A stretch of 1,601 nt of DNA from Escherichia coli (GTDB lineage Bacteria; Pseudomonadota; Gammaproteobacteria; Enterobacterales; Enterobacteriaceae): the NCBI RefSeq assembly GCF_003334335.1, contig NZ_QOWQ01000101.1; one strand, given 5' to 3'. Position 1 is the stretch's first letter. Every line of letters begins with the position of its first letter. Shown here one piece after another: positions 1 through 1,601 of the stretch. Both the position numbers and the translations under genes were made by a program. Under the pieces are notes generated by a model that saw only the letters and a program-made list of their open reading frames with translations, had not been told where the DNA came from and did not search any database.

Positions 1-1601
1 GAACTGGCCTACGCTCTCTGGCCTGGTGATGTGGATGCCGGAAACATTGACGGCAGCATCCATCGCTGGGCAAAAAAAGAAGTTATCGACAACGACCGCG
101 AAGACTGGAAGCGTATCTCGGCATCAATGCGCAAACAGCCTGATGCCCTTCGCTACGACCGCCAGACTATTTTTGGCCTTGTCCGTGAACGTCCGATCGA
201 CATTCACAAAGACCCTGTGGCACTGAACAAATACATTACTGAATACCTGACTACAAAGGGCGTGTTTGAAGATGAAGGAACAAATCAGAGCGCAACTGAT
301 ACTCTCTCGTCGCCAGTACCAGAAACTGATGCAGTGGAAACGGCAATTCCAGACAACGAAAAAACCGAATGCAAAGTGGAAGTCGAACCATCTGTAGAAC
401 GTGAGGGGCCGTTCTACTTCCTCTTCACCGACAAGGATGGCGAAAAATACGGTCGCGCAAACAAACTTTCTGGTCTGGATAAGGCGCTGTCTGCTGGGGC
501 TACTGAAATCACGAAAGAAGAATATTTCGCCCGCAAAAACGGTACATACTCAGGTTCACAACAAAATACTGGTGCATCTGACACGACCGCACAACCAGGG
601 TCAGTAAAAGTTACCGCTGACGAAGTAAACAAAATTATGCAGGCAGCCAATATCAGCCAGCCTGACGCCGATGAACTGCTTGCAGTATCACGTGGTGAAT
701 TTGTTGAAGGGATTAGCGACCCGAATGATCCGAAATGGGTTAAGGGGAACCAGACCCGCGATTCTGTGAACCAGAACCAGCAAGAAACGGAACAGAACGA
801 CCAGAAAGCGGAACAAAACAGCCCAAATGCGTTACAAAACGAGCCAGAAACGAAACAGCCTGAATCAGTGGCGCAACAGGAAGTGGAAAAAGTCTGCACC
901 GCCTGCGGTCAGACCGGCGGCAACTGCCCTGATTGTGGCGCGGTAATGGGCGACGCAACATACCAGGAAACATTCGATGAAGAGTATCAGCCTGAAGTTC
1001 AGGAAGATGATCCGGAGGAAATGGAAGGCGCTGAACATCCACACAAGGAGAACACTGGCGGCAATCAGCATCACAATAGCGATAATGAAACTGGCGAGAC
1101 GGCAGATCACCCAATTAAGGTGAACGGTCATCACGAAATCACATCCACCAGCAGGACGTGTGACCATCTAATGATCGACCTTGAAACCATGGGAAAAAAT
1201 CCTGATGCCCCGATCATCTCAATAGGTGCAATATTTTTCGATCCGCAAACCGGAGATATGGGACCGGAATTTAGTAAGACTATCGATCTGGAAACTGCTG
1301 GCGGAGTCATTGATCGGGACACCATTAAATGGTGGCTTAAGCAATCACGCGAAGCGCAATCTGCCATTATGACCGATGAAATCCCGTTAGATGATGCACT
1401 GTTACAATTGCGGGAATTTATCGACGAAAACTCCGGTGAATTTTTTGTTCAGGTTTGGGGAAATGGAGCCAACTTCGACAACACGATTTTGCGCCGTTCA
1501 TACGAACGGCAGGGGATCCCCTGCCCGTGGCGTTACTACAACGATCGCGATGTACGCACAATCGTTGAGCTGGGGAAAGCCATAGACTTCGATGCCAGAA
1601 C
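1..1601 (+). CDS. recE: Internal fragment (partial at both ends) of a large prophage RecE-like exonuclease (exodeoxyribonuclease VIII family) carrying a zinc-ribbon linker and a DnaQ-like 3'-5' exonuclease domain
   Basis: Frame 1 is open across the entire window (533 codons, no stop), while every other frame is broken by stops. Translation reads ELAYALWPGDVDAG...[25 protein letters not shown]...CTACGQTGGNCPDCGAVMGDATYQETF...DPEEMEGAEHPH...MIDLETMGKNPDAPIISIGAIFFDP...WGNGANFDNTILRRSYERQGIPCPWRYYNDRD...AIDFDAR. The segment from codon ~224 to ~348 closely resembles the RecE (Rac prophage) linker region as I recall it ([24 protein letters not shown]...CNACGQTGG.NCPDCGAVMGDATYQETF...DPEEMEGAEHPH). 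Symbol given as recE-like; the domain after the linker differs from canonical K-12 RecE. Confidence 0.6.
895..936 (+). other. Four-cysteine zinc-ribbon-like motif (C-x2-C-x6-C-x2-C) in the linker of the CDS
   Basis: Codons 299-312 read C-T-A-C-G-Q-T-G-G-N-C-P-D-C, with Cys at codons 299, 302, 309 and 312. It is embedded in otherwise acidic, Q/N-rich low-complexity sequence, typical of a small metal-binding knuckle. Confidence 0.55.
1171..1601 (+). other. DnaQ-like (DEDD superfamily) 3'-5' exonuclease domain within the long CDS, continuing past the window end
   Basis: Exo I-like motif M-I-D-L-E-T-M-G (nt 1171-1194, acidic D393/E395 in window codon numbering). Exo II-like motif W-G-N-G-A-N-F-D-N-T-I-L (nt 1456-1491, D493). 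Candidate Exo III Y-x3-D in W-R-Y-Y-N-D-R-D (nt 1528-1551). Spacing and hydrophobic beta-strand context (PIISIGAIFFDP) fit the RNase T / DnaQ / Rv2179c-like fold. Confidence 0.7.

Follow-up and report, generated by a model that had tools for sequence, protein, structure and literature searches.

RecE (exonuclease VIII), encoded by the Rac prophage of E. coli K-12, and the free-standing exonucleases of several phages are the described systems closest to the gene analyzed here. The nuclease domain of RecE has been placed at residues 564-866 (PMC11611040). "RecE-2" proteins, in which the nuclease domain is absent, have been described, and DnaQ-like 3'-5' nucleases occur in lambdoid Rec modules (PMC12315714). 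Free-standing exonuclease genes of the family studied here are widespread and encode proteins of approximately 180-190 aa. Examples are mEp460 gp26, ST64B Sb30, the exonuclease of Salmonella phage NM-3 and Vibrio CP-T1 gp02, which contain the same domain as the gene analyzed here at 45-61% identity; T4 DexA is a distant likeness (21-23% identity). These genes often adjoin xis-int or lie in a Rec module.

The composite prophage gene

The window, by which is meant the whole 1,601-nucleotide stretch of E. coli DNA analyzed, contains codons 253-786 of an 822-aa prophage "exonuclease" gene. It is 99.8% identical to an annotated 822-aa CDS located between ydfD and xis-int-ompW (locus L001). The encoded protein matches phrog_2082, a family with the generic name "exonuclease", from end to end (residues 1-822 against profile positions 1-823, 1857.6 bits), and no difference from this family was found. 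Of 5,426 complete E. coli genomes, 3,599 had a match to at least 80% of the window, and the sampled rows showed a single CDS. The fused architecture, which is old and widespread, has already been catalogued under phrog_2082. The fusion gene is common in E. coli prophages, and ydfE of K-12 is an IS2-truncated remnant of it. No study of, or experimental data on, a RecE-N/exonuclease fused protein was found in the literature searched for PF16473, Rv2179c and RecE.

The gene is a composite of a RecE-like N-terminal region and a C-terminal Rv2179c-like (PF16473) DEDDh 3'-5' exonuclease domain. The ORF is kept continuous in relatives with an unstructured linker between the modules, and the parts are found independently or with other partners, as in a multidomain fusion. 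The modules and the segments around their junction are the following:

1..1116, plus strand: RecE-like N-terminal region, non-catalytic, aa 253-624; a mosaic whose final ~100 codons closely resemble Rac recE
1087..1116, plus strand: last segment shared with RecE, ETGETADHPI, with a sharp module breakpoint at its 3' end
1117..1158, plus strand: linker specific to the fused family, KVNGHHEITSTSRT, 42 nt, with conserved NGHH and TSTSR motifs
1156..1164, plus strand: hypervariable three-codon patch T-C-D, defined by entropy and ungapped alignment
1165..1601, plus strand: Rv2179c-like (PF16473) DEDDh 3'-5' exonuclease domain, the first ~146 of its ~172 residues in the window
1165..1188, plus strand: beta-strand 1 of that domain, HLMIDLET, residues 54-61 of the AlphaFold2 model

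The N-terminal module is related to RecE over a limited range. BLASTP against K-12 RecE aligned aa 262-624 to RecE residues 278-591, and the point at which homology ends lies next to where the RecE nuclease domain starts according to PMC11611040. The NCBIfam RecE equivalog NF007259 scored 267.2 bits against a cutoff of 1269 and matched only profile positions 271-602 of 877, so that the whole-protein score places the protein outside the RecE/exodeoxyribonuclease VIII family. No similarity to RecE, and hence no PD-(D/E)XK nuclease domain, was seen past RecE residue 591, and a BLASTP search with RecE 601-866 gave no match to the fused representatives. The two proteins have a Cys4 motif in common, and their genes occupy the same early-left operon position in a lambdoid prophage, upstream of xis-int. 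However, the C-terminus of the 822-aa protein is a DEDDh 3'-5' exonuclease, whereas that of RecE is a PD-(D/E)XK 5'-3' nuclease. In addition, no recT-type annealase gene lies beside the fused gene; in L001 xis and int follow it directly, unlike in Rac, where recE is followed by recT.

The C-terminal module was identified by Pfam PF16473 (E = 5.9e-67, aa 641-812, model positions 2-177 of 177). A reading made from the sequence alone had placed the start of this domain exactly at Met643. Neither the Pfam match, which begins two residues earlier at aa 641, nor the AlphaFold model, in which beta-strand 1 is H641-T648, agrees with this placement. Mean pLDDT of the model is 84.6, with values of ~95 from model residue 51 on and above 90 over the domain, and a disordered tail lies upstream. 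The best Foldseek matches were T4 DexA (8KEL, E = 2.5e-11) and RNase T, that is, proteins of the DnaQ-type fold. All five DEDDh residues are present: D645 (1177-1179) and E647 (1183-1185) of Exo I on beta-strand 1, D745 (1477-1479) of Exo II, and H795 and D800 of Exo III, which fall past the end of the window and were read from L001. A 62-sequence alignment shows no variation in the first four and at least 90% conservation of D800. From family membership and the intact catalytic residues, the protein is predicted to have 3'-5' exonuclease activity. Among the commonest E. coli prophage genes there would be one in which a RecE N-terminal region is paired with an exonuclease of opposite polarity.

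Stand-alone homologues and the module junction

The family search returned 7,910 matches at E <= 1e-10, and most of the 150 matches listed were ~180-200 aa. Since stand-alone exonucleases are this abundant, the general idea of the sequence-only reading holds, namely that a once-separate exonuclease gene became fused in frame to a RecE-like gene: the gene is composite, and its exonuclease domain is commonly found alone. The part of the idea that did not stand was a TAATG string as the footprint of the event, which is treated in the next section.

Stand-alone exonucleases had also been said to start typically at the equivalent of Met643. Starts were surveyed in 93 cluster representatives with a length of at most 260 aa, and the comparison contradicts this statement. 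The modal start is four codons upstream: in 47 of the 93 representatives exactly four residues precede the Met (M-N-H-[LIV]-M), and seven start at the Met itself. Annotated stand-alone examples likewise begin 4-5 codons 5' of it. The free-standing phage exonucleases share the first strand, H/N-L-M-I-D-L-E-T, and the same catalytic residues with the fused protein, but are 177-190 aa long and start from an ATG of their own, four or five codons ahead of the Met, which is served by its own Shine-Dalgarno sequence. In the window copy this start is gone, and the protein is longer by 640 N-terminal residues. In E. coli phages the stand-alone start has a GGAGG Shine-Dalgarno sequence and overlaps the stop codon of the preceding gene, for example as TGATG in mEp460 and TAATG in 720R4. 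All 80 of 80 mEp460-type IMG/VR loci read GGAGGTGAAGT[GA]ATGAA[CT]AACTTA followed by ATGATCGAC, with the start upstream of the ATG equivalent to the flagged one.

These starts are annotations backed by Shine-Dalgarno position and conservation, and some gene callers pick the second ATG. For example, loci L014 and L175 were called from the second ATG, yet an upstream ATG with a Shine-Dalgarno sequence is present in each. L175 encodes P0141, one of the seven representatives that start at the Met, and L014 encodes P0106, which is outside the seven.

The junction between the modules is real and lies 10-55 nt from the flagged ATG. Homology to recE DNA stops at window position ~1108-1116, which corresponds to RecE codon ~589-591. 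The fused locus L010 is 88-91% identical to recE DNA up to ...GCAGATCCC[T/G]TAAT and unrelated directly afterwards. P0122 and L010 combine an N-terminus resembling that of K-12 RecE (88% protein identity; 88-93% DNA identity to K-12 recE in conserved stretches) with an exonuclease domain of the window type. RecE-N-like N-termini are found in every one of the distant fused representatives, which share 57-62% identity with the query in the exonuclease domain.

Downstream of the breakpoint is the linker, which had 59 distinct variants among 83 fused proteins. It has no secondary structure in the AlphaFold model, with pLDDT of 50-65 (below 50 through model residue 36). When window positions 1112-1165 were compared by blastn with 50,697 phage records, linker DNA was found within fused genes only, and no independent source of the 42 nt was found among these records. 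The reading frames that precede the stand-alone genes of mEp460 and ST64B, when inspected, held nothing that resembled the linker convincingly. The hypervariable patch follows, with entropies of 2.27, 1.61 and 2.11 bits at positions -5, -4 and -3 and values of at most 0.6 in its flanks. In ungapped alignment, the stand-alone ATG of mEp460, 720R4, ST64B and NM-3 is aligned with TGT, CGG or TGG of the fused alleles. Judged by this alignment, TGT at 1159-1161 occupies the start-codon position of the stand-alone genes.

We infer the direction and mechanism of the original fusion, the direction from the abundance of stand-alone genes and a neighbor-joining (NJ) tree that has no support values. An ancestral free-standing exonuclease gene would have been joined in frame to a gene of the RecE-N type. 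Its start codon would then have decayed, leaving the TGT, TGG or CGG present today at 1159-1161. Later, the N-terminal module may have been exchanged by recombination, with a breakpoint near 1116, between RecE-type proteins with the 5'-3' PD-(D/E)XK nuclease and proteins of the DEDDh type. A route to in-frame fusion with an upstream neighbor is seen in loci L095 and L096, where a DUF551 gene is read through into an exonuclease gene after a 5-nt deletion turned a stop/start overlap into a fusion. There the old Shine-Dalgarno sequence and ATG are still readable as codons (AGGEV-M-NNLM), whereas in the window gene TGT now stands at the start position and the Shine-Dalgarno sequence has vanished.

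The opposite direction was also considered, in which the fused form is ancestral, at least in an enterobacterial subclade, and genes of the mEp460/ST64B type arose by fission with a new start codon at -4. In the rough NJ tree the fused domains group into a small clade that is nested within the stand-alone genes, and the mEp460 and ST64B stand-alone genes fall within that clade as sisters to the E. coli fused alleles, as fission would have it, although the tree carries no support values. Their position could reflect intragenic recombination or secondary fission. The near-identity of the C-terminal halves between E. coli fused and stand-alone alleles suggests intragenic recombination. Furthermore, the M-N-[NH]-[LIV]-M leader is the consensus of a taxonomically broad family (the 47 of 93 above), and its re-invention is therefore unlikely. 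Thus, an origin of the stand-alone genes by fission is improbable, and fusion of a free-standing gene is preferred.

A wider proposal, which we put forward tentatively and hold to be somewhat less probable than its converse, is that the RecE-type N-terminal region is a polarity-independent carrier. Recombination at a sharp breakpoint (window ~1113-1117, RecE residue ~591) would have re-paired it in lambdoid prophages, either with a 5'-3' PD-(D/E)XK nuclease and RecT or with a 3'-5' DEDDh exonuclease and no annealase. The N-terminal domain would then direct two end-processing reactions of opposite polarity to their target, be it DNA ends or a host factor. The DEDDh version would have a distinct role, for example trimming of 3' tails, anti-recombination or the countering of a defence system. 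The hypervariable patch at 1156-1164 would represent what is left of the ancestral start codon after its decay.

The in-frame ATG and the TAATG string

The interval 1159-1194 is very probably the start of the catalytic domain in a long-established two-module prophage protein, with the TAATG string as a look-alike. Two further features are needed here:

1153..1156, plus strand: AGGA, within Arg-Thr codons; non-functional as a Shine-Dalgarno sequence, being 14 nt from the ATG and missing in L010
1168..1173, plus strand: CTA ATG, encoding Leu642-Met643, a conserved hydrophobic residue and an invariant Met within beta-strand 1

The sequence-only reading had located these strings correctly. Direct reading of the window gives CTA ATG at 1168-1173, a frame-2 TAA at 1169-1171 followed directly by TGA, and AGGA at 1153-1156 with a spacing of 14 nt to the ATG.

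It was considered whether Met643 is a working internal start, in which case a free 180-aa exonuclease would be produced beside the 822-aa fusion. In favor of this, the ATG is invariant and in frame with the gene, and some annotations list a 180-aa product (P0078, P0084, P0086). However, the Met is equally invariant in the stand-alone proteins, where it is residue 5, and its conservation is therefore structural. Its equivalent is invariant in the 62-sequence alignment and present in 91 of 93 representatives, and the residue preceding it is V, L or I in 79 of 86. Leu642 and Met643 are residues two and three of beta-strand 1, and Met643 is a conserved structural residue of that strand, not a start codon. 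There is also no usefully spaced Shine-Dalgarno sequence, and the AGGA is not conserved (the L010 allele reads AGCAGAGTG at that place), which bears out the doubt already expressed about independent translation from this ATG. No promoter- or terminator-like site was found in a scan of 1000-1350, and an Rfam search of the whole window returned no RNA family. The AGGA was also rejected as a relic of the stand-alone Shine-Dalgarno sequence (AGGAcGTG against AGGAgGTG), since in ungapped alignment it is 7 nt out of register and other fused alleles are without it.

Four E. coli calls of 180-185 aa that begin MIDLET were considered as separate ORFs, and among them (P0084, P0113, P0106 and P0141) none qualified as a separate MIDLET-start ORF downstream of a RecE-like gene. 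P0084 (180 aa, MIDLET start), the sole 180-aa call with a readable locus, lies within an open 813-aa ORF in L010. The related P0113 (183 aa) comes from L006, an assembly broken by runs of N. The loci of P0106 and P0141 (L014 and L175) are truly stand-alone, but in each the call passes over an upstream ATG that bears a Shine-Dalgarno sequence. Internal initiation at Met643 is accordingly very unlikely.

Less probable still is that TAATG records a former 1-nt overlap of stop and start codons, in which a RecE-like gene in frame 2 ended where an exonuclease gene began at this ATG, the two being fused later by a frameshift. The string is present in the window, such overlaps do precede stand-alone genes, and one of them became the read-through fusion of L095 and L096. 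However, several observations stand against a fossil overlap. First, the genuine start of the stand-alone genes, with its Shine-Dalgarno sequence and stop/start overlap, lies 12 nt farther upstream. Secondly, the Leu-Met pair is internal and conserved in the stand-alone proteins; TTA ATG, which also reads TAATG, is found within the ORF in 80 of 80 mEp460-type stand-alone loci. Third, other fused alleles have CTG ATG in place of CTA ATG, so the string is not a relic specific to the fusion. Fourth, frame 1 is uninterrupted over the entire window and frame 2 is open for only 15 codons ahead of the TAA at 1169-1171, so no upstream gene could terminate at this TAA in today's sequence. An upstream partner ending there was looked for, and the RecE homology was found to be in frame 1 and to stop 54 nt earlier. 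Lastly, the TAATG string at the flagged site is no more than chance: the window contains three, compared with ~1.5 in composition shuffles, and two of the eight in-frame Met codons have the TAATG context, the second being GTA ATG at 944-948. Thus, the fossil overlap is in practice refuted by the stand-alone loci, and CTA ATG is a conserved Leu-Met codon pair opening the exonuclease domain, not the relic of a fusion junction.

That an error of sequencing or assembly produced the continuous frame and masks two genes has next to no probability, even though some database entries split the gene (L006), since that split is caused by runs of N, the complete genomes above carry the match as a single CDS where sampled, and the frame is open, with at least 270 codons upstream, in 80 of 80 fused IMG/VR loci.

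The look-alike arises automatically when a Leu codon of the form xTA or xTG stands before the ATG. Of the six Leu codons, four (TTA, CTA, TTG and CTG) yield T[AG]ATG in this position and so mimic a stop/start overlap. An out-of-frame stop that overlaps an in-frame ATG is uninformative where the codon before the ATG encodes Leu, Ile, Val or Met, and reading such a string as a fusion scar needs a check against homologues. The conserved second Met also misleads gene callers, in that stand-alone genes are sometimes wrongly started and fused genes are sometimes given as 180-aa products.

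The fused gene and its two regions

Reading frame 1 is open across the window (1-1601), and the remaining five frames are interrupted. At 99.8% identity the window matches a portion of an E. coli JE86-ST05 CDS that is annotated as an 822-aa "exonuclease" and lies in a lambdoid prophage, flanked by dicB-ydfD and xis-int-ompW; codon 643 of this gene is window base 1171. Related copies are very common: among complete E. coli genomes (5,426), 4,744 contain a match to the window and 3,599 a match over at least 80% of its length. The fused architecture has been catalogued previously as phrog_2082, whose profile (823 positions) matches the whole 822-aa protein from end to end. 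The K-12 MG1655 pseudogene ydfE (Qin prophage, locus L176 5079-5999) is 100% identical to codons 1-256, the stretch of the gene that precedes window base 12. The IS2E cut in ydfE nearly coincides with the window start, and K-12 therefore lacks everything in the window.

The C-terminal domain is a member of PF16473 (Rv2179c-like 3'-5' exonuclease domain), found by Pfam at aa 641-812 with the full model covered (E = 5.9e-67). An AlphaFold2 model computed from a 62-sequence alignment has pLDDT >90 across this domain and a disordered tail upstream of it, and its beta-strand 1 is H641-T648 (HLMIDLET). The top solved-structure matches of the domain were T4 DexA (8KEL) and RNase T, both of which are DEDDh enzymes, and the catalytic residues D645, E647, D745, H795 and D800 are conserved in the same alignment.

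The N-terminal region is homologous to K-12 RecE residues 278-591. The protein is not RecE, because none of the three defining RecE features tested was found; the RecE equivalog model gives it 267 bits, below the 1269-bit cutoff, and matches only over model positions 271-602. DnaQ-like 3'-5' nucleases in lambdoid phages and RecE-like proteins without the RecE nuclease have both been reported (PMC12315714). The remaining point of interest is that very many E. coli prophages pair the RecE N-terminal region with an exonuclease of predicted opposite polarity.

The TAATG string and the starts of stand-alone exonucleases

The sequence-only reading took TAATG at 1169-1173 as a possible stop/start-overlap footprint of a gene fusion, at a Met where stand-alone exonucleases typically start. 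The strings lie where it placed them: CTA ATG at 1168-1173, a frame-2 TAA (1169-1171) with TGA after it, and AGGA at 1153-1156, 14 nt 5' of the ATG. The interpretation did not hold. Stand-alone genes rarely start at this Met. Stand-alone homologues are abundant, with tblastn matches in 1,245 phage records and 7,910 proteins at E <= 1e-10 in a representative search. Among 93 representatives of at most 260 aa, only 7 start at the Met itself and 47 have exactly four residues before it. The Met is present in 91 of the 93, is preceded by V, L or I in 79 of 86 and is invariant in the 62-sequence alignment. For example, mEp460 gp26, 720R4, ST64B Sb30, 118970_sal3, NM-3 and CP-T1 all have annotated starts 4-5 codons 5' of the equivalent Met, and annotated N-termini read M-N-N-L-M-I-D-L-E-T, M-N-H-L-M-V-D-L-E-T or M-I-D-H-V-M-I-D-L-E-T.

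The Leu-Met is internal to the stand-alone ORFs, and the real overlap lies 12 nt 5'. All 80 mEp460-type IMG/VR loci read GGAGGTGAAGT[GA]ATGAA[CT]AACTTA followed by ATGATCGAC. Their true start, 12 nt 5' of the conserved Met, has GGAGG seven bases 5' and shares bases with the stop codon of the gene before it (TGATG or TAATG); their Leu-Met is TTA ATG, hence another TAATG. The TAATG at 1169-1173 thus derives from the interior of the exonuclease ORF, where it encodes a conserved hydrophobic residue and the invariant Met of beta-strand 1. Four of the six Leu codons produce T[AG]ATG when placed before Met, and other fused alleles have CTG ATG at this site. Nor is the string remarkable here: the window contains three TAATG strings, against about 1.5 in composition shuffles, and two of its eight in-frame Met codons form one (the second is GTA ATG, 944-948). 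The TAA ends a frame-2 stretch of only 15 open codons.

Independent translation from this ATG was already considered unsupported, and this was borne out, as the ATG lacks a usefully spaced Shine-Dalgarno. The AGGA was rejected as a relic of the stand-alone Shine-Dalgarno, being out of register and not conserved. No promoter-like site was found within 1000-1350, and no Rfam family matched the window. Database "180-aa" products were rejected as real short proteins and are annotation or assembly artefacts; the fused allele L010 (4001) has such a product on record despite an open 813-aa ORF.

Annotation in the family is inconsistent, and some stand-alone genes are called from the second ATG with the Shine-Dalgarno-bearing ATG skipped (L014 3001; L175 552; compare L011 2498). 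L014 and L175 were accordingly rejected as genes starting at the Met, since they have the same upstream ATG and Shine-Dalgarno. The exonuclease lies directly 5' of xis-int in the window's prophage and in mEp460 and ST64B. In Salmonella phage NM-3 (L004 1266-3346) the stand-alone exonuclease is part of a recombination module of the P22 type (erf, ssb, exonuclease, anti-RecBCD abc2).

The junction and the history of the fusion

The guess of a domain junction here was correct to within 10-55 nt, but it was tied to a string that is not its footprint. When L010, which has a K-12-like N-terminus, is compared with recE, DNA identity is 88-91% up to ...GCAGATCCC[T/G]TAAT and the sequences are then abruptly unrelated. 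This breakpoint corresponds to window ~1113-1116, or RecE codon ~591. Two features follow it.

Features of the junction (window positions)
1117-1158: linker KVNGHHEITSTSRT, 14 codons, between the breakpoint and the exonuclease domain
1156-1164: hypervariable three-codon patch between the invariant TSTSR and HLM, more variable than any other part of the region

Among 83 proteins of the fused family, 59 of them distinct, the linker is conserved as NGHH...TSTSR, and its DNA was confined to fused genes in a search among 50,697 phage records. Entropy of the patch is 1.6-2.3 bits, against at most 0.6 on either flank, and its variants include TCD, LWH, AGI, VWY, VWH and VRH. The ancestral start-codon position, taken from the stand-alone genes, falls inside the patch as TGT at 1159-1161 (TGG/CGG in other alleles).

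Comparison of homologous loci, as had been proposed, recovered stand-alone exonucleases and both parts either separate or with other partners. The gene is a fusion in this general sense. The frame is continuous in 80 of 80 close relatives, and distant fused representatives, with exonuclease domains 57-62% identical to the query, all have RecE-N-like N-termini; the fusion is old rather than a local accident. In a rough NJ tree of 62 sequences, which carries no support values, the fused domains group together in a 12-member clade that also contains the mEp460 and ST64B stand-alone genes. This pattern is compatible with a single old fusion followed by intragenic recombination. Two sequences pair a K-12-RecE-like N-terminus with an exonuclease domain of the window's type: the fused protein P0122 (88% protein identity) and L010 (88-93% DNA identity in conserved stretches). 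Therefore, the N-terminal module is still exchanged between both architectures.

L095 and L096 (around 1440-1512) illustrate how a fusion of this kind can newly arise: a 5-nt deletion, GCTACCGGAACCGCC to GCTAACCGCC, brings a DUF551 gene in frame with the stand-alone exonuclease gene downstream. The read-through product is ...HWMPLTAAGGEVMNNLMIDLET, in which the former Shine-Dalgarno and ATG can still be read as codons. The deletion occurs in two independent IMG/VR contigs, and may be a sequencing error.

Variation within the fused gene

Five proteins from other E. coli assemblies (P0094, P0109, P0117, P0087 and P0089) are deletion derivatives of the fused gene and look like decayed prophage copies. 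In three the N-terminal part runs straight into the middle of the exonuclease domain, and in the other two an unrelated N-terminus (PF17678) is attached at ...PQTGDMG.

Window 769-882 is a low-complexity, Gln/Asn/Glu-rich stretch (NQNQQETEQNDQKAEQNSPNALQNEPETKQPESVAQQE) with a 14-residue insertion relative to K-12 RecE. At 895-939 a four-cysteine motif, CTACGQTGGNCPDCG, stands within otherwise low-complexity sequence; K-12 RecE conserves it as CNACGQTGGDNCPDCG (aa ~517-533), and it may form a small zinc-binding knuckle of the RecE N-terminal region. In both phage and E. coli records, coverage by matches was repeatedly broken at window ~603, ~697, ~836 and ~1108-1116, which indicates mosaic recombination boundaries within the N-terminal region. 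What is shared with Rac recE at the DNA level is the 836-1108 segment.
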